Counted from the first letter of the stretch, positions 28,068-37,717 are shown. The stretch: DNA of 64,000 bases from Longimicrobiales bacterium (GCA_965198065.1 CBDAON010000004.1:2528001-2592000), one strand, 5' to 3'. Numbers and translations are program-made. The notes: generated from the letters alone by a model not told the origin.

Positions 28068-30239
28068 CTATCGGTGGAGGGAGTAGGTGAGCTTCAGGAC
28101 CAACGAAGAGTTGGACAGGTCGGCGTACTCACCGTCGGTAAAGCGTGTCAGATTGTACACCAGGTAAACGTTGTCGATTTGGCGGAAGATGTAGTTGAAG
28201 CGCAGTTGGATGGCAGCCAGGTCTCCCGAGCTGTTGTACTGCAGGAACGCCGAAGTGAGGAGGGAGCCGGTGATTGAAACGTTCGTACGGAGCCCAGCCA
28301 GATGAGTAGTGAACGATCCCTCGGGCAGGTCGACGTCGTTTAAGCTGTAGCTGGGCTGCAGGGACAGGTTCGGGCTCGGTCGGACATTGCCGCTCAGGGA
28401 CACCGAGCGCTTGGTCCCGGTCCAGAAGTTGCCGACCTCTCCGCTGAGTGTTCCCTGAACGGTCCGGCCGTTGAACGTGTTTAGTTGCAGATTCACCGAG
28501 CTCCACTCGTAGCGGCCCTCGGCGAGTGTTACGTCCGGTGCGATCGGGAAGAGTCTCTCGAGCCCTTCGACGCGATTCGTCAAGGTCAGGGAGACCTGGT
28601 CTCCACTCTCGAAGAACGTGCCTAGGCGCAGCACTGCCCGCCGAGTCCTCAGGTCGCCGTCGTCGTCGTGGAAGTAGACAAGGCTGGGAGAGATATCGAA
28701 CTGCCGGATGCGATCGGTGGTGGGCCGGGGCCTGAGAGAAAAACTCCCACCCATCATACGTTGCCGGCGGATGACGAAACCGACCCCGGGGTTGAAGTCC
28801 GACGAAATGTCGAGGACCGTGAACCCAGCTTGTAAGAAGTCGTCGCGCCACTGGACAGCGGCGTGCCGGACCCAACCCTCTCCGTCGGCTTCCGGCTCGA
28901 AGGAGCGGGCCAGCATCGCACCCACCTGCAGGTGCTCGGCGATCACCAGGTTGGCGTCGGCAGCCAGAACCCGGTTGTAGCTGCCGCCCCCCTCGCGACT
29001 CGTTACAACACCGCCGATGTAGGAGCGCCCCATAACCTCTCTGCGCACGCGACCCACAGCGAAGGTCTCACCCGCCGCGCCTTCGATCGCGTCGGTCCGA
29101 GCGTAAAGCATCCCCACATCGAGTCCGGCTGCCTTCCCGGTCAGCTTACCGCCCCCGAGGATGGACTGCGGCGCTCCGCCGGCCAGCCCAATCTGCCGGC
29201 TATAGAACAGCTCCAGCGGCGGCGGCCCGAAGTGTAGCATGTTGATGCCCGCTCGCATCGCGTCTCCACCTTCGATGAAGAACTGACGCTTCTCGGGAAA
29301 GAACAAGCTGAACCGGGTGAGGTTCACCCGCTGCTGGTCAACCTCCGTCTGCGCGAAATCAGGGTTAACCGCCAGATCGGCCGTCAGTTCAGAAGTAAGC
29401 GCGAGCTTGAGGTCGTCGATTCCTACATCGAGGACGACCTCTGAGCCTGAAGGGTCCGGCACGGCTCCCAGGCGCTCCGTCCCTGATACCAGATAGGGCC
29501 TGAAGCGAACGCGCTCCGCCTGCGTGATTCCGGTCAATCCTCGGAGCTGGCCTGCCTGCGACACGTTCGTAAACTCGTAGTCCTGGCTCCAGCCGCTCCA
29601 GTGGGCCGTCTCGTTCTTTCGCTTGATAACCCGTTCGAAGTTGAGCCCCCACTCCTGGTCCCCCTCTGCTGAAGCGAACCGCAAGATCTTGAAGGGAATC
29701 GCCATCTCGAGGGACCAACCGGTCTCGGTGACACGCGCCGCGGCCTCCCACTGTTCATCCCAATCGGCTCTAAGACGGCCCTCGTCGCGAATGGTCGCGT
29801 CAAACAGGGTTCCGAGCGGATTTACACGAAAAGCGAAGCCGCTACGATCGTCATCGAACGTGTCGAACAACACGGTGAAGCGGTCATCGCTATCCAGCGG
29901 ATCGTCTCGTCGGAGCTCGGTTGCCCGTATCAACGAAGGTTCTGAGTCGAAGAGTTCCGCGGCGACGTAAAGAGTCGTGTCGTTGTAGGCGATCCGAACC
30001 ACGGTACGCTCTGTGGCGAGGGAGCCCTCGGCCGGTTCTCTTTGCCGGAAGTCGCTCGCCACGGGGACCCCCACCCATAGCGACTCGTCCAGTGTCCCGT
30101 CGATCACGGGTGCGCTGCTCACTCGCGTGGCAGCGAGCTCTGCGGTAGTCCTATCCTGGGGTTCCTGGGGGGACACCTGTACGGCACCGAGAATGACGGC
30201 TACCGAAGCGAGGGAAATCGGACTAGTGATCATCCACAT
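28068..30239 (-). CDS. CBM9-like sugar-binding domain plus DUF5916-type outer-membrane beta-barrel protein
   Basis: APVIDGTLDE..W, F.QREP.EG, DTFDD.RSGF.F.VNPLG, GWSLEMAIPF..LRF, VNPDFAQTEVD...NLTRFSLFFPEKRQFF.EG, terminal LKLTY. Confidence 0.85.
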   Translation of the reverse strand: MWMITSPISLASVAVILGAVQVSPQEPQDRTTAELAATRVSSAPVIDGTLDESLWVGVPVASDFRQREPAEGSLATERTVVRIAYNDTTLYVAAELFDSEPSLIRATELRRDDPLDSDDRFTVLFDTFDDDRSGFAFRVNPLGTLFDATIRDEGRLRADWDEQWEAAARVTETGWSLEMAIPFKILRFASAEGDQEWGLNFERVIKRKNETAHWSGWSQDYEFTNVSQAGQLRGLTGITQAERVRFRPYLVSGTERLGAVPDPSGSEVVLDVGIDDLKLALTSELTADLAVNPDFAQTEVDQQRVNLTRFSLFFPEKRQFFIEGGDAMRAGINMLHFGPPPLELFYSRQIGLAGGAPQSILGGGKLTGKAAGLDVGMLYARTDAIEGAAGETFAVGRVRREVMGRSYIGGVVTSREGGGSYNRVLAADANLVIAEHLQVGAMLARSFEPEADGEGWVRHAAVQWRDDFLQAGFTVLDISSDFNPGVGFVIRRQRMMGGSFSLRPRPTTDRIRQFDISPSLVYFHDDDGDLRTRRAVLRLGTFFESGDQVSLTLTNRVEGLERLFPIAPDVTLAEGRYEWSSVNLQLNTFNGRTVQGTLSGEVGNFWTGTKRSVSLSGNVRPSPNLSLQPSYSLNDVDLPEGSFTTHLAGLRTNVSITGSLLTSAFLQYNSSGDLAAIQLRFNYIFRQIDNVYLVYNLTRFTDGEYADLSNSSLVLKLTYSLHR

Positions 30240-30449
30240 GCATGTGCCATGAGTGTCGGCGCTGGCGCTCACTCGTGACGGAGCGCTTCCGATCGGATCC
30301 ATCAGCAGTTCGCCGTCCGAGAGCTTGCCCACTCATGACACCCGGCAAACGATCCCTGTTGAAAGATACGCGCGCCAAGCGCCCCGGACTCCCCACGCCC
30401 GGGGAAATGACACAGCAGAACCGAGGCGGACCCTGATCTGGACCCGTTA

Positions 30450-31526: not shown

Positions 31527-32945
31527 ATGGGCTCCACCAAGCCGAAAGGAAAGTTCGACCGGACCATCGTCGAGGGTCCGATCCGCCGTGCCGTCTGGAA
31601 GCTCGCGTGGCCGACGATGCTCCAGAACATCATCGGCGGTGTCCAAGGGATCGTGGACCACGCGATGGTGGGGCACTACGTGGGGTTCACCGGAAACGCC
31701 GCGATCGGCGTCTCGTGGCAGATCTTCCTAGTCGTCATGGTGTTCATCAGCTCCCTCTTCACCGGGATGGGCGTGATGGTCGCGCGCTTCGCCGGCGCGG
31801 ACGAACCCGAGAAGGTGAACCGGGTCGTCTACCAGGCGTTCTTGACGGCCCTCATCCTGGCCTTCGTCATCCTTGCCCCCGTCGGGTATTTCCTTGCCCC
31901 GTGGCTCCTCGATCTCATCAATGCCACGGCGGAGGTCCAGGGGGAGGCGCTCCCCTACCTCCGCATCATGTTCGTGTTCAGCATCGGGATGCTCACGTTC
32001 TTCATGCTGGGCGGTGCGCTCCGTTCCGCGGGGGACCCCCGCACGCCGCTCCGGCTCGGGATCGTTCTCACGGTCCTGAACCTGATCCTGAACGTGATCT
32101 TCATTACGGGACCGGGTCCGCTGCCTGCCTTCGGGACGACAGGGGCGGCGATGGGGACCACGCTCGCGGGCGCGATCCTCATGCTCTACTCGTTCTGGCG
32201 GCTCTTCACACACCGCTGGGTCGTGGACTTTCACCGGGGCATGGACCTCCGCCCTGACTGGGAGATCATCCGAGCGCTGTTCCGCTTCGGGCTCCCCACC
32301 GGGATCCAGGGCGTCGCCATGAACATCGGGGGCGTGGTGATGCTCACCTTCGTCGGCTCCCTCGCGCTCTCGGCCCAGGCCCAGGCTGCCTACACGGTGG
32401 GCTACACCCAGCTCTTCTCGCTTATCACCTGGACCTCGGTGGGGCTCATGGGTGCCGCTGCGGCGGTAGCTGGACAGAACCTCGGGGCCGGGCATCCCGA
32501 GCGCTCCCTCCGCGGAGTCCATGTGGCCGCCAAGATCGGTCTCGCGGCGGCGGTGGTCGTCGGGAGCCTGTTCCTCACCATCCCGCGCGCACTTCTCTCC
32601 GTGTTCGGGATGGAGGATCCCGCGGTCGTGGACCTCGGCGTCGAGCTCCTCGCCTTCCTCAGCGCGTCGGGGCTCTTCGTCACCGTCGCGCTCTCCTACA
32701 CGGGGGGTCTCCAGGGCACCGGGGACACGAAGAGCCCTCTCTACATCTCGATCATCTCGCAGGTCGTGGTCCCGATCGGGGCCTGCTCCGCGATCCAGCT
32801 TCTCCGCGGGCTCGAGCCCCGGGACATCTGGCTGGCGATCGTCCTGGGCCACCTGACCCGCGCCGTCCTCAGCACGCTCCGTTTCCGACAGGGAAAGTGG
32901 CGGAACATTGAGGTCGAGATCGGGCCTGCCCGGGCCGCCGGCTGA
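31527..32945 (+). CDS. MATE-family efflux transporter
   Basis: EGPIRRAVWKLAWP, VDHAMVG, LRSAGDPRTPL, GQNLGAG, LQGTGDTKSP. Confidence 0.93.
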   Translation: MGSTKPKGKFDRTIVEGPIRRAVWKLAWPTMLQNIIGGVQGIVDHAMVGHYVGFTGNAAIGVSWQIFLVVMVFISSLFTGMGVMVARFAGADEPEKVNRVVYQAFLTALILAFVILAPVGYFLAPWLLDLINATAEVQGEALPYLRIMFVFSIGMLTFFMLGGALRSAGDPRTPLRLGIVLTVLNLILNVIFITGPGPLPAFGTTGAAMGTTLAGAILMLYSFWRLFTHRWVVDFHRGMDLRPDWEIIRALFRFGLPTGIQGVAMNIGGVVMLTFVGSLALSAQAQAAYTVGYTQLFSLITWTSVGLMGAAAAVAGQNLGAGHPERSLRGVHVAAKIGLAAAVVVGSLFLTIPRALLSVFGMEDPAVVDLGVELLAFLSASGLFVTVALSYTGGLQGTGDTKSPLYISIISQVVVPIGACSAIQLLRGLEPRDIWLAIVLGHLTRAVLSTLRFRQGKWRNIEVEIGPARAAG

Positions 32946-32975
32946 CGCTCCGGCGTGCTCGTAGCCCCATCCGTC

Positions 32976-33054
32976 TTGACGGCCGCCCTGGGATCCCTAC
33001 ATATTTAGGCCAGACTAAATCAAAAATGTGGCTAGCCTAAAATGTGGCGAGCCT
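32976..33054 (+). promoter_or_regulatory. Promoter with tandem DtxR/MntR-like operators
   Basis: TTGACG at 32976, AT-rich -10 region near 32998-33005, palindrome ATTTAG-GCCAGA-CTAAAT (33003-33020), then AAAATGTGGC(T/G)AGCCT twice (33023-33054). Confidence 0.65.
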
Positions 33055-33078
33055 GGTGAATCTGGAGGGTGCGTGGGG

Positions 33079-34305
33079 ATGCCGGGTCTTCGGGGGAAGA
33101 GAGTTGGGCGGCGGGGAGGCGTGTTTTTCCTGGTCGCTGTGGCGCTCGCAGGTTGCGACGCCATGCTCACGGCCGCGCCCGACGATCGCGACCTCTTCGA
33201 CGCGCCGTTTACGGAGCTCACGACCGAGGAGCGTGCCGTCTTTGTGCGAGGCGATGCCGCGTTCGAGCGGACGTTCTCCCCGTCCGAGGGGTTAGGCCCG
33301 ATCTTCAACGACCGCGGCTGCGCGTCCTGCCACAGCAGCGACGGCCGGGGGCGCCCCGAAAACGCCCTGGTCCGGATCGGGGTGCCTCCGACCATGTCGA
33401 GGGAGCTCGGGGGGCCCCAGATCCAGACACGTGCGATCCCCGGGGCGATTGCCGAGCCGATTCCCACGGGTGTTCCCTCGTCTGTTCGGCTGCCCCCGCC
33501 TGTCTTCGGTGTCGGGCTGATAGAGGCCATTCCCGCGGAGACGATTCTGGCCTTCGTAGATCCGGACGACGCGAACGGGGACGGGATCTCGGGACGGGCC
33601 AGCCTCGTCGCACCGCCCGACTGGGTTCCCCCCGGCGAAATTGGCGGGGGGCCGGGCCCGCAGCTCGGTCGTTTCAGCCGGAAGGCGCAGGTGAGCACGC
33701 TCCTCCAGCAGACCGTGGAGGCGTACCACGAGGACATGGGCATCACGAAGGACTTTCTCCCCGCCGACAACGAGAACCAGATCGGAGGTCCGCTCACGCG
33801 AGGGGCCGACCACGCCCCGGACCCGGAGCTTCCCGAGGCCGAGGTGCGGGCCGTGCTCGAGTATCTCCGGATGCTCACCCCACCCGCTCCGGGCGAGGAG
33901 ACGCCCGAGCGGGCCGAGGGTCGTCGCCTGTTCCAGGAGATTGGGTGCGCGAGCTGCCACATCCCCTCTGTCCAGACGGGTCCCCATCGGATCGCGGCGC
34001 TTGAGTACCGCTCGGCGGAGCTCTACTCCGACCTCCTGCTGCACGACATGGGGGAGGAGCTCGAGGACGGGCGCCCGGACGGAGCCGCAGACGGCCGGGA
34101 GTGGCGGACTGCGCCGCTCTGGGGCCTTCGCGTCATGCGGGACTTCCTAGCGGGGGACGCGTTCCTCCTCCACGACGGGAGGGACCGCTCCGTCGAGGAG
34201 GCGATTGATTACCACGGTGGGGAGGCCGCCGCGTCGCGCGGGGCGTTCGACGCGCTACCGATGGACGGCCGGGCCGCCCTTCTCAGCTTCGTCGAGTCCC
34301 GCTGA
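33079..34305 (+). CDS. Di-haem oxidoreductase (DHOR)-family c-type cytochrome lipoprotein
   Basis: Lipobox LAGC, GLGPIFN..GCASCH, PPVFGVGLIEAIP, DPDDANGDGISGR, second CASCH, YSDLLLHDMG, EWRTAPLWG, LLHDGR. Confidence 0.9.
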   Translation: MPGLRGKRVGRRGGVFFLVAVALAGCDAMLTAAPDDRDLFDAPFTELTTEERAVFVRGDAAFERTFSPSEGLGPIFNDRGCASCHSSDGRGRPENALVRIGVPPTMSRELGGPQIQTRAIPGAIAEPIPTGVPSSVRLPPPVFGVGLIEAIPAETILAFVDPDDANGDGISGRASLVAPPDWVPPGEIGGGPGPQLGRFSRKAQVSTLLQQTVEAYHEDMGITKDFLPADNENQIGGPLTRGADHAPDPELPEAEVRAVLEYLRMLTPPAPGEETPERAEGRRLFQEIGCASCHIPSVQTGPHRIAALEYRSAELYSDLLLHDMGEELEDGRPDGAADGREWRTAPLWGLRVMRDFLAGDAFLLHDGRDRSVEEAIDYHGGEAAASRGAFDALPMDGRAALLSFVESR

Positions 34306-34727
34306 TGGAGCGCCGTCGTTTTCTCCGTGTCCTCGGTGGCGGAGGCCTCGCCCTGGGAGCTACAGGATGTGCCTCTGCGCTCCCACTGACGGTTCCCGGG
34401 GAGGGTGATCTGGTTCGGCTCATCCTCGGAGAGCACCCGGCGCTGTCCTCGTCCGGCGGGTCCCTCCGCCTCCGGATCGGGGGCGACGGCCGGCTAGTCT
34501 ACGTCCTCGGCGTGGGGGAAGGGGAGTTCGCCGCGCGCTCTCCCATCTGCACGCACCAGGGGTGCACGGTCGAGGTGGAGGGGGCGTACCTGGTCTGCCC
34601 GTGCCACGGGTCCACGTACGCCCGCGACGGGACGGTCGTCCGGGGGCCTGCGCCCCTTCCGCTCCGGCGCTTTCCGACCCGAGTAGCGCCCGGGGGAGTC
34701 CTCGTGATCGAGACGGGGGAAGGATGA
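34305..34727 (+). CDS. Tat-exported Rieske [2Fe-2S] (lipo)protein
   Basis: RRRFL twin-arginine motif, ATGC lipobox, CTHQGC and CPCHGS, GPAPLPL. Confidence 0.92.
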   Translation: MERRRFLRVLGGGGLALGATGCASALPLTVPGEGDLVRLILGEHPALSSSGGSLRLRIGGDGRLVYVLGVGEGEFAARSPICTHQGCTVEVEGAYLVCPCHGSTYARDGTVVRGPAPLPLRRFPTRVAPGGVLVIETGEG

Positions 34728-36016
34728 GAGGGCCAGACGTGTACCGTCCTGGAGCTCAAGGTCGCCGGAGCGTGGATGGGCGGGTGGTGTCGGCGGTCGC
34801 GAAAGCCCGCGGTCGGGTGGTCGACGCGGCCACGCTCGCGTGGACGCTGCTCCTCCCGGCCGTTCCTCTCGGGGCTCAGGTAGGGGCAGCCCCCGGAGCG
34901 GCCGGGGCCGATTCAACCTCCGTCCAGGAGCGGCCCTTCGTCGAGGGGGGCCAGTTCGACAAGCCCTACCTCACGACCCTCCTCGGCCGCATCGTGATCG
35001 GCGGGTACGCCGAGGCGCACGCCCGCTACGAGCGCGAGGACGGCGTCGAAAGCGAGCTCGGGTTCGAGGCCAAGCGCTTCAACCTCTTCGTGTCGAGCCC
35101 GGTGAGCGACTTCGTCCGCTTCGGCGCGGAGCTCGAGTTCGAGGAGGGTGCCGAAGAGATCAAGCTCGAGTTCGCCACCGTGGACCTGACGATCCACCCG
35201 TCCCTCGCCTTCCGCGCTGGGATGCTCCTGTCTCCGCTCGGGCGGTTCAACCTGTCCCACGACAGCCCATTGAACGCGTTCACGGACCGGCCGGTCGTCG
35301 CCACCGAGATCCTGGGAGTGGCGCTCTCGGAGCCGGGGCTTGGGGTCCTGGGGGCGCTGGCGTTCGGGGGTGGGACCGCGCGCGTCACGTACGAGCTCTA
35401 CGCCGTGAACGGCTTCCATTCGGGGCTGATCGAGAGCTCGCCGGAGGGAACGCGCATTCCCGAGGGGAAAGGCGCCCAGTCGGACGGGAACAGCTCTCCC
35501 GCCTTCGTGGGTCGGGTTGCGGTGACCCCGAGGGTCGGCTGGGAGCTCGGCCTCTCGGCCCACCACGGAGCCTGGAACGACTTCGAGGAGGAGGGCCTCG
35601 AGGTGGACCGGCGCCGGAACCTGACGATCGGAGTGCTCGACTTCGGGATGGAGGCGTACGGCGTGTCGGTGCGAGGCGAGCTGGCAGCGGCGAGCATAGA
35701 CCTCCCTCCCGGCCTTCGGGGCCTCTACCAGGCCCGTCAGCGTGGGTTCTTCCTGGAAGGGGTGCTCCCGTTCGGGATGGGCTGGGTCCCGACCATGCCG
35801 TCCTCGACGTTCAATGCTCGGGTCCGGTTGGAGGCCGTGGACTTCGACTCGGAGCGAGGCGGGGATTCGGTCAGGCAGGTGAGTGCGGGCGTGGGCTTTC
35901 GGCCGACTCCGGAGACCGCGCTCAAGCTCGATTACGTACGCGGTCGGAGTTTCGATCGCTTCGAGAACCCGGCTGATCACGCCCGCATCCTGCTCTCGGT
36001 GGCCACGTACTTCTGA
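34724..36016 (+). CDS. Outer-membrane porin-like beta-barrel protein
   Basis: ATGA overlap with the Rieske gene; hydrophobic signal; ELEFEEG.EEIKLEFA, FRAG.LLSPLGRFN, GFRPTPETALKLDY, terminal ATYF. Confidence 0.75.
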   Translation: MRGPDVYRPGAQGRRSVDGRVVSAVAKARGRVVDAATLAWTLLLPAVPLGAQVGAAPGAAGADSTSVQERPFVEGGQFDKPYLTTLLGRIVIGGYAEAHARYEREDGVESELGFEAKRFNLFVSSPVSDFVRFGAELEFEEGAEEIKLEFATVDLTIHPSLAFRAGMLLSPLGRFNLSHDSPLNAFTDRPVVATEILGVALSEPGLGVLGALAFGGGTARVTYELYAVNGFHSGLIESSPEGTRIPEGKGAQSDGNSSPAFVGRVAVTPRVGWELGLSAHHGAWNDFEEEGLEVDRRRNLTIGVLDFGMEAYGVSVRGELAAASIDLPPGLRGLYQARQRGFFLEGVLPFGMGWVPTMPSSTFNARVRLEAVDFDSERGGDSVRQVSAGVGFRPTPETALKLDYVRGRSFDRFENPADHARILLSVATYF

Positions 36017-36018
36017 AC

Positions 36019-37218
36019 GTGAGAAGACGGGGAACGCATCGGGCTTCTTGGCCCACGGCGATCGCGGCCGCGGGCCCGCTGGCTGCGGCGCTCATCGTCT
36101 CCTGCGGCTCCTCTACCGAGCCCAGCGGTCCGGGTCCCGACGGTCCGGGCCCGGGCGCACAGGACGAGATCGTCCTGACCGAGGTGGTCTCGGGGCTCGG
36201 CACCCTGACCGCGCTGACCGCTCCCCCCGGAGATTCCCGGCTGTTCGTCGTCGAGCAGTCCGGACGAATCTGGATTGTGCGGGACGGGACGCTCGTCGCC
36301 ACCCCGTTCCTGGACATCCGGAGCCTCACCTCCACGGACGGCGAGCGAGGCCTCCTGGGCCTCGCTTTCCACCCCGCGTACGCGACGAACGGCCGCTTCT
36401 TCGTGAACTACACGAACACGGGCGGCGACACCCGCGTCGTCGAATACGGGGTCGGGACGGACCCCGACCTGGCGGATCCCGCCTCGGCGGCCGAGCTCCT
36501 GGCCTTCGAGCAGCCCTTCTCGAACCACAACGGCGGAGATCTCGCGTTCGGCCCGGACGGCACCCTGTACGTGGCGACGGGAGACGGCGGGAGCGCCAAC
36601 GACCCGCAAGGGAACGGCCAGAGCGTGCGGACGCTCCTCGGCGGCCTGCTCCGGCTGGACGTGAGCACGCCGGGAGAGGCGACGATCCCATCGGGGAACC
36701 CGTTCTCCGGGCGCCCCGCCGATGGGCGCGAGGAGCTGTGGGCGTGGGGCCTCCGGAACCCGTGGAGGATCAGCTTCGATCACGCGAGCGGACTCCTCTT
36801 CATCGCCGACGTGGGGCAGGGGGCGTGGGAGGAGGTGAACGTCGCCCGCGCGGACGAAGCCGCGCTGAACTACGGGTGGAGCGTCATGGAGGGCCCCGAA
36901 TGTCGGGGGGGAGGGTCGTGTGACCGCTCGGGGCTAACGGAGCCTACCCTCGCCTACGCCCATCCCGAGGGGTGCTCGATCATCGGGGGCGCGGTCTATC
37001 GTGGGGGCCGGATCCCGTCGGCCCTGGGGCACTACTTCTACTCGGACCTGTGCAGCCGCTTCCTCCGGTTGTTTCGCTACGAGAACGGGACAGCCGCGGA
37101 CGCCCGGAGCTGGGAACTCACCGCGCCCGCCCAGGTGAGCTCGATGGGGCAGGATGCTGCGGGGGAGCTCTATCTGCTCACGGTAGACGGACGGGTGCTG
37201 CGGCTCGATCCGAGCTGA
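36019..37218 (+). CDS. PQQ-dependent sugar dehydrogenase (GSDH beta-propeller) family lipoprotein
   Basis: Lipobox IVSC, RLFVVEQSG, GERGLLGLAFHP, NHNGGDLAFGPDG.LY...GDGG, GLRNPWR, NYGW. Confidence 0.9.
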   Translation: MRRRGTHRASWPTAIAAAGPLAAALIVSCGSSTEPSGPGPDGPGPGAQDEIVLTEVVSGLGTLTALTAPPGDSRLFVVEQSGRIWIVRDGTLVATPFLDIRSLTSTDGERGLLGLAFHPAYATNGRFFVNYTNTGGDTRVVEYGVGTDPDLADPASAAELLAFEQPFSNHNGGDLAFGPDGTLYVATGDGGSANDPQGNGQSVRTLLGGLLRLDVSTPGEATIPSGNPFSGRPADGREELWAWGLRNPWRISFDHASGLLFIADVGQGAWEEVNVARADEAALNYGWSVMEGPECRGGGSCDRSGLTEPTLAYAHPEGCSIIGGAVYRGGRIPSALGHYFYSDLCSRFLRLFRYENGTAADARSWELTAPAQVSSMGQDAAGELYLLTVDGRVLRLDPS

Positions 37219-37261
37219 GGCGCCACCAGGATCGTCCCTCTACGCCCCGCGCTTCGATCGT

Positions 37262-37717
37262 CTATCGGAATATGCTTGTGACGAGAATCGCGCCCTGGTC
37301 ATGCCCGGTCCCGTAGCGCGTGGTCGCCTCCCCCGCGCTCAGGTACCGCATCTCCCGGATGTTCGTCGAGTCGATACTCCGCAGGATGTTGTTTCCACTA
37401 GTGGCGGGGAGATCGACCGTGCCGAATCGGGCCCCGTCGAGGTAGACGACGAGAGCGGTCGCCTGGCCGCCCGTGATGAACGAGCCTGTACCCCGGGGCC
37501 GGAGCCAGAGGGACCGGAGGCGCGACACCACAAAGTAGGCGTCGGCCGCAGTGTCCGAGATCTCCTCGATCTGGGCCGCCGTAATGACGTTCGAGCCGGA
37601 CCCGCCGCCACCGCCGCCGCCGGTTCCGGCGGCGCACCCGGCGATCACCACGGCAAGCGAAACAGCGAGGGCCGGTGGAAAGAGAGGGGCAATGCGCCCC
37701 CGGCGACGGAAGAACAT
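37262..37717 (-). CDS. Small lipoprotein with a stand-alone TonB plug-like domain
   Basis: Lipobox IAGC, Gly linker, NVITAAQI, VVYLDG, IREMRYLSAGEATTRYGTGH..GAILVT. Confidence 0.7.
   Translation of the reverse strand: MFFRRRGRIAPLFPPALAVSLAVVIAGCAAGTGGGGGGGSGSNVITAAQIEEISDTAADAYFVVSRLRSLWLRPRGTGSFITGGQATALVVYLDGARFGTVDLPATSGNNILRSIDSTNIREMRYLSAGEATTRYGTGHDQGAILVTSIFR

Follow-up and report, generated by a model that had tools for sequence, protein, structure and literature searches.

What do four exported proteins, encoded in one tight gene cluster, do together at the cell envelope of a Longimicrobiales bacterium? The cluster lies in a 64-kb stretch of DNA (CBDAON010000004.1:2528001-2592000, the window below, whose first letter is position 1) from a genome of 3.05 Mb that is 87.6% complete. 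Four co-directional, tightly packed genes fill 33079-37218 on the plus strand, and they encode a DHOR-family di-haem protein, a Rieske protein, a porin-like barrel and a GSDH-type protein. A first-pass annotation had read them as a self-contained electron chain of four proteins, fed by GSDH and acting on Fe or Mn that enters through the porin. We find that the conserved unit is three genes, DHOR, Rieske and porin, and not four, and that this triad is kept in a fixed order in at least two bacterial phyla. We see about even chances that these first three genes form a conserved envelope cassette which stands under a DtxR/MntR-type operator and serves manganese acquisition by redox chemistry. The features of the locus are as follows.

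32976-33005, plus strand: sigma-70-like promoter, TTGACG (32976), 18 nucleotides (nt), CATATT (33005); 9 of 12 matches, mean of shuffles 0.2
33005-33018, no strand: operator palindrome TTAGGCCAGACTAA (TTAG-N6-CTAA), overlapping the -10 hexamer
33027-33040, no strand: degenerate second box TGTGGCTAGCCTAA, 22 nt downstream of the first; putative, seen by reading the sequence
33079-34305, plus strand: cassette-type DHOR-family di-haem lipoprotein, 408 residues, ATG start, PF06537, two CxxCH motifs
34305-34727, plus strand: small Rieske [2Fe-2S] lipoprotein exported by twin-arginine translocation (Tat), 140 residues, PF00355, CTHQGC...CPCHGSTY
34724-36016, plus strand: outer-membrane 16-strand porin-like barrel of an unnamed family, 430 residues with signal, C-terminal ATYF
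36019-37218, plus strand: GSDH/HHIP-like six-bladed propeller lipoprotein, 399 residues, PF07995

The reading frames, Pfam matches, motifs and junctions bear out the four exported, coupled genes of the first-pass annotation. DHOR and Rieske overlap by one base (TGATG) and Rieske and porin by four (ATGA), and a gap of two bases separates porin and GSDH. The DHOR frame is already open from a GTG at 33028, before the ATG at 33079, and an alternative start of the porin is the GTG at 34817. Signal peptides and lipoboxes of all four proteins were assigned by eye and not by a predictor. Profile searches, which the first-pass annotation had named as a check, matched DHOR, Rieske and GSDH, but the porin has no curated family and was recognised as a barrel by AlphaFold2 and Foldseek.

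The triad was followed through three sets of related loci. For Gemmatimonadota, a porin-profile scan with one genome per species gave 219 relatives, from which we took the 80 best loci. By tblastn, the porin was matched in 80 of these 80 loci, Rieske in 78 and DHOR in 74, and the order DHOR-Rieske-porin on one strand was invariable. The two loci that lack Rieske (L050 and L051) start at the porin. Six loci lack DHOR, five of them because of a contig end (L010, L050, L051, L059 and L060), and the real exception is L076. In that locus (L076:6012-9032), Rieske and porin are matched but DHOR is not, although 7.5 kb of sequence is available upstream, and the porin match is also shortened (residues 59-399). 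Among 18 extra genome stretches, one of which was cut beside its match and is uninformative (L104), the triad was found in 12, including 8 of the 10 whose porins are only 36-42% identical; one genome has two triads, and three distant porin paralogues stand alone. The second phylum is Bacteroidota, where a porin representative (P0143, 278 bits) comes from the cultured Adhaeribacter rhizoryzae and A. aerolatus; it shares 32% identity with the window porin and keeps its signature motifs. With this Adhaeribacter porin, 45 metagenome loci of 30-66% GC were found. The full triad is present in 32 of them, five have Rieske and porin at a contig start, seven begin at the porin, and in one (L120) DHOR and porin are separated by a stretch with no match. 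In a phylum sample of 401 genomes, a close porin relative (E <= 1e-77) was found in 46, for 21 of which E was <= 1e-150, and a further 28 genomes had distant porin paralogues only. The co-occurrence that the first-pass annotation expected of all four genes holds for DHOR-Rieske-porin, in fixed order and in two phyla, but not for GSDH.

GSDH was found after the porin in none of the 143 related loci (0/80 Gemmatimonadota loci, where tblastn gave no match at all, 0/18 extra stretches and 0/45 metagenome loci). Because it never lies downstream of the porin in these loci, we take GSDH to be a lineage-specific, local fourth gene, and of the proposed four-protein chain only a three-gene module is left, an outcome that the first-pass annotation had itself listed as refuting. 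The protein itself is a full-length member of its family (PF07995 at 1.7e-37, 129.9 bits, profile positions 11-331 of 332) whose signal ends IVSC/G, and among solved structures it is related to HHIP and to the aldose dehydrogenases 3a9g, 3das and 2g8s. In the window's organism, GSDH is probably co-transcribed with the porin. A chain limited to this lineage, with GSDH as the electron donor so that electrons from sugar oxidation would pass to Rieske, then to DHOR and then to the metal, is a doubtful but arguable proposal. The 2-base gap speaks for it, as does the four-gene order shared with a strain of ~97% identity, although that strain, known from a 14-kb contig, is not independent evidence. 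Six of the 45 metagenome loci, in two sequence groups, also have a GSDH relative close to the triad, and these relatives are 39-48% identical to the window GSDH, compared with at most 31% for each of the five other GSDH paralogues in the window's genome. However, all six lie 1.1-1.9 kb ahead of DHOR and on the other strand, and four (in L127, L128, L138 and L139) are split over two or three reading frames. The five paralogues also count against a dedicated donor. PqqC (TIGR02111) had no match in the genome, and none in the control genomes either.

The promoter region connects the triad to a regulator. The sigma-70-like promoter is the only one in 32800-37400, with none between porin and GSDH. 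The palindrome TTAG-N6-CTAA has a single copy in the window, compared with 0.03 expected from shuffles. Across the 3.05-Mb genome there are three exact boxes, one before the cassette and two before the operon of a DtxR/MntR-family regulator (C4:396798 and C4:396820), and the two boxes of the window have the same 22-nt spacing as the pair in front of the regulator gene. In the 66 Gemmatimonadota loci having upstream DNA, an exact box lies within 300 nt of the DHOR start in 38, usually after a TTGAC-type hexamer; these 38 boxes fall within 19.8 kb, compared with 51 boxes in the whole 932 kb of the loci. Over 98 loci (1.2 Mb) there are 62 boxes, of which 50 stand before DHOR, four before MntR-like genes, three before NRAMP genes, three before a second, longer DtxR-like gene, one before a multicopper oxidase (MCO) gene and one elsewhere. 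In the metagenome loci, a box precedes DHOR in 17 of 20, often as a tandem pair. The first-pass annotation had seen DtxR/MntR-like boxes upstream of the cluster, and the same box before regulator, NRAMP and MCO genes supports this. We read the boxes as operators of a DtxR/MntR-type regulon, and on this pattern the cassette is very probably a member of it. Two further observations concern the operator region. A tandem 16-nt direct repeat (AAAATGTGGCTAGCCT / AAAATGTGGCGAGCCT) occupies 33023-33054, downstream of the operator and ahead of the DHOR start. It shares positions with the degenerate second box, and inspection of the other loci by eye did not reveal it there. In the ~97%-identical strain (one contig), the first T of the operator (33005) is C.

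The regulator gene (C4:396834-397520) has two boxes directly before it and encodes a protein of 228 residues that contains PF01325, PF02742 and FeoA domains. Next in the operon come a Tat-exported two-domain MCO and then a ZIP/ZupT-like permease (C4:396798-399672, L086). The pairing of an MCO with a ZIP importer in one autoregulated operon is itself unexplained. The best family of the regulator is the Thermus type of MntR (188 bits, compared with 94 bits for DtxR), and its best solved relatives are 5zr4, 8pvt, SloR and ScaR, which we take to be Mn sensors. Asp and Glu at positions 10 and 102 are the Mn type, and Met and Cys at these positions are the iron type of DtxR/IdeR. The regulator has Asp10 and Glu102, compared with Met10 and Cys102 in DtxR. 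In the regulators next to other cassettes, Asp stands at position 10 in 22 of the 23 alignments that reach this position, and Glu or Asp at position 102 in all 24. Three Fur-family genes for other metals are also present in the genome. These features point to Mn more than Fe as the metal; of the two metals that the first-pass annotation left side by side, Mn gains from the regulator and its relatives, and Fe is disfavoured.

Genes of metal import also adjoin the triad in other genomes. On the same strand, an MntR-like gene adjoins it in 19 of the 80 Gemmatimonadota loci and an NRAMP gene in nine (confirmed by Pfam in L055 and L071), and MCO-ZIP lies directly upstream in three (L046, L054 and L072). 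Among the extra stretches, L107 has the order MntR-MCO-ZIP-DHOR-Rieske-porin, and NRAMP is part of L096 and L097. Since tblastn gave no NRAMP match in the window's genome, the ZIP permease is the candidate inner-membrane partner there. The longer DtxR-like protein mentioned above (~350 residues, Fe_dep_repr_C and FeoA) recurs beside the cassette (L012:3889-4938, L060:1502-2596, L079, L080, L021, L092, L098 and L099), and in three loci its gene has its own TTAG-N6-CTAA box.

DHOR matches PF06537 at 1.5e-64 (218.7 bits, cut-off 22) in two pieces, profile positions 16-82 and 214-498, so that the cassette form is without ~130 middle positions of the Pfam profile. Its CASCH motifs are at residues 81 and 290. 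C81, H85, C290, C293 and H294 are invariant in 36 DHOR sequences and C84 is kept in at least 90% of them; the N-terminus ends LAGC/D, read as a lipoprotein signal. The same genome has a canonical DHOR with a full profile match (323 bits), between two imelysin genes ~95 kb away, to which the cassette DHOR is 39% identical; for cassette DHORs in general the median identity to it is 38% (104 related matches). As the first-pass annotation had noticed, no imelysin accompanies the cassette: PF09375 was matched in 0 of the 143 loci, and the imelysin operon is a separate one. In that operon, the profile match of the upstream imelysin (C4:2466677-2467651) spans three TGA and one TAA stops, which may reflect a broken gene or a match that runs from one reading frame into another. 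The AlphaFold2 model of the cassette DHOR (predicted local distance difference test, pLDDT, 73) gave nothing in Foldseek at E <= 0.001, and only weak matches to CCP, MauG, BthA and MbnH (E from 4e-3, template-modelling (TM) score 0.3-0.4).

The Rieske protein (PF00355 at 7.6e-12) has the twin-arginine motif RRRF and the lipobox ATGC, and an RRxF-type Tat motif is common to all 35 homologues in the alignment. In these 35 sequences, the Cys and His residues of CTHQGC and CPCHGSTY never vary, nor does S103, and 28 have the Tyr two residues past S103 (CPCHGS-x-Y). CPCHGS-x-Y is the motif of high-potential, bc-type Rieske proteins. Such a motif suits the Mn(III)/Mn(II) couple, and not ferric oxides. 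The first-pass annotation had noted that no cytochrome b stands beside the Rieske gene, and PF00033 has no match in the genome at its completeness of 87.6%, although the genome holds three Rieske-domain genes. Because cytochrome b was not found, and with scores against all bc1/b6f equivalogs far under their cut-offs, we conclude from the sequence that the cassette Rieske is not a subunit of a bc complex. Its best solved relatives are small stand-alone Rieske proteins, which likewise have a Rieske domain of ~110 residues and no cytochrome b partner (8hn2 at 2.5e-15, 5cxm and 9rk4; E 2.5e-15 to 1.9e-11). Their genomic context is unlike that of the cassette, and we know of no established physiological role for them.

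The porin has no cysteine and ends ATYF. It has no Pfam family at E <= 0.01, and its profile gave chance-level rows only against solved structures. The sole NCBIfam match, to the siderophore porin LbtU, was rejected as chance (16.8 bits, cut-off 90). The AlphaFold2 model (pLDDT 64.5) is a beta-barrel, for which the best Foldseek matches are the 16-strand porins PorB, Omp32 and OprP/OprO (E ~1e-11, TM score 0.5-0.7). In an alignment of 24 sequences, the mean column identity is 65%, with many invariant polar residues. The most conserved stretches are residues 70-88, 175-200 (with an HDSP motif) and 231-256, and because these are the stretches modelled at low confidence, the model suggests specific loops, unlike those of a general diffusion pore. 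The family is large: 1429 of 7998 scored candidates are relatives at E <= 0.001, and an exhaustive profile search gave 194 cluster representatives at E <= 1e-30, 985 at E <= 1e-10 and 2040 at E <= 1e-3. Among the 120 relatives listed, identities are 59-98%, the only name is 'hypothetical protein', and the phylum, where named, is Gemmatimonadota. Five relatives are gene calls of ~600 residues (P0038, P0041, P0066, P0073 and P0116). In P0038 and P0073, the frame of a Ste14/ICMT-like membrane methyltransferase runs stop-free into the porin signal peptide; these calls may be merged, or may show an alternative upstream neighbour.

A role of the cassette in manganese acquisition is probable, and it can be set out in steps. 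Under Mn shortage, the repressor would leave its box and the cassette would be derepressed. The porin would let Mn species in, and oxidised Mn, for example in Mn(III) complexes, would probably be converted to Mn(II) by the Rieske/di-haem pair. The co-regulated ZIP permease, or NRAMP where other genomes have it, would then carry this Mn(II) into the cell. We favour this reductive direction, tentatively and at somewhat less than even chances, because the importers carry divalent ions, because high-potential carriers can reduce Mn(III) and not ferric oxides, and because much of the Mn in the environment is oxidised. A more specific and more speculative version, which we hold to be doubtful, is an assimilatory Mn reductase built as a split porin-redox conduit: Rieske, fed by DHOR, would dock on the periplasmic mouth of an Mn-specific pore and reduce Mn(III) complexes or colloidal Mn oxides.

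Parts of this arrangement have precedents. Cyc2 is a fused cytochrome-porin of iron oxidisers, and like the cassette it has a small porin-type barrel and a single redox centre on the entry route of the metal. Unlike Cyc2 and the MtrAB-type porin-cytochrome conduits, the cassette barrel is without a haem motif, since it has no cysteine, and the redox proteins are separate lipoproteins; the metal and the direction of electron flow may also differ. In Fet3-Ftr1 and EfeUOB, too, a metal-repressed regulon joins redox enzymes of the periplasm with a permease, as the MCO stands beside ZIP here, but in the present case the permease is of the ZIP/NRAMP type for divalent ions, the metal is another one and an outer-membrane tier is added. 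The outer-membrane channel MnoP of Bradyrhizobium japonicum is under Mur, of the Fur family. According to the accessible part of one review (PMC9334652), MnoP serves under Mn scarcity together with the NRAMP importer MntH. Unlike the cassette porin, MnoP has no known redox partners. By analogy, the cassette porin may play the part that MnoP plays for MntH. For DHOR, the precedent is the imelysin-DHOR(DUF1111)-imelysin(-DUF1513) operon of the PA4370-4373 type, iron-regulated according to the accessible parts of two reports (PMC3143127; bioRxiv 10.1101/072470), which is likewise an envelope locus under metal control and combines a DHOR-family di-haem protein with an outer component. The cassette differs in that its partners are Rieske and porin, with no imelysin, and its operator is of the DtxR/MntR type instead of Fur.

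Several points weigh against reductive manganese acquisition by the cassette. The score of the regulator, 188 bits, is under the NCBIfam cut-off for MntR (350), and its metal is judged from two residues and its relatives. The three boxes in the genome are only ~2 times the shuffle-based expectation (0.03 per 64 kb), so the argument depends on the positions of the boxes and not on their number. No exact box lies within 300 nt in 28 of the 66 loci, some of which are inside a longer operon, and 43 of the 80 loci have neither regulator nor importer nearby, many of them on short contigs. With a close porin in just 46 of 401 genomes, the cassette is dispensable. No RNA run was found that contains this stretch of DNA. 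Within the conserved genes, no source of electrons for Rieske is evident. The sole structural relatives of DHOR are peroxidases and MauG-type enzymes, weakly matched, and the MCO of the regulon is an oxidase; both fit an oxidative scheme at least as well.

In such an oxidative scheme, DHOR would be a di-haem peroxidase that removes H2O2 with Rieske electrons where the metal enters, or would oxidise Fe(II) or Mn(II) with H2O2 or O2; together with the MCO, this would keep Fe(II)/Cu(I) out of the unselective ZIP/NRAMP importers, or trap the metal. The structural matches of DHOR, limited to CCP, MauG, BthA and MbnH, agree with it, although they are weak, and the Pfam name of the family is putative peroxidase. 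The MCO in the same regulon, fused to the cassette in four loci (L046, L054, L072 and L107), agrees with it too, and models of EfeB/DUF1111 iron uptake involve a peroxidase in the accessible part of PMC3143127. However, ZIP and NRAMP carry divalent ions, so that oxidation of Mn(II) would oppose import, and a peroxidase by itself leaves the strict link with a dedicated porin unaccounted for. We regard this scheme as unlikely.

Uptake of ferrous iron, with the DtxR-family regulator sensing Fe(II), is less probable again. Pfam calls the domains of the regulator iron-dependent repressor, relatives of DHOR occur in Fur-regulated iron loci (PMC3143127, accessible part), and NRAMP and ZIP can carry Fe(II) too (PMC9334652, accessible part). 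Against these stand Asp10/Glu102 in place of the Met/Cys of DtxR/IdeR, nearest solved relatives that we take to be Mn sensors, and a genome with three Fur-family genes and a separate canonical imelysin-DHOR operon, and we consider iron improbable. Finally, DHOR could be a MauG/MbnH-like maturase that makes a metal site in the porin or another protein with electrons from Rieske, as MbnH (6e1c, a MauG-like protein of copper homeostasis) is among its fold matches and MbnH/MbnP belong to a metal-acquisition operon, but there is no MbnP-like partner, the fold similarity is weak, and we judge this very improbable.

Metal-regulated uptake loci of the envelope are known, and the Rieske/di-haem/porin cassette is an unstudied variant of them. 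A literature search found no paper on an Mn-regulated cassette of Rieske, di-haem protein and porin; on Mn uptake in Gemmatimonas it turned up only surveys that look unrelated, and for PetC3 no lead to a function. The DUF1111 literature it did find concerns, in its accessible parts, the imelysin context only (PMC3143127; bioRxiv 10.1101/072470). Bacterial Mn uptake is described in the accessible part of PMC9334652 as uptake of Mn(II) via NRAMP, ABC or ZIP transporters, with few outer-membrane components known. If the cassette does belong to an Mn-type regulon, it would add an envelope redox tier to Mn uptake, and it would give aerobic soil and marine bacteria a route to use oxidised Mn. An assimilatory Mn reductase, if it exists, would make the oxidised Mn of soils and oceans bioavailable to heterotrophs of at least two phyla. 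Membership of the cassette in an Mn-type regulon would also provide a first functional handle on the cassette-type DHOR branch, on stand-alone periplasmic Rieske proteins and on the unnamed porin family. As this porin family includes cultured Adhaeribacter species, the hypothesis is testable at the bench.

Among the surrounding genes, the upstream MATE and EamA genes were considered as cassette members and dropped, as tblastn matched them in 0 of the 80 Gemmatimonadota loci. On the minus strand, 28068-30332 encodes a DUF5916/CBM9 protein of a large paralogous family, for which tblastn gave 17 matching stretches in the genome.

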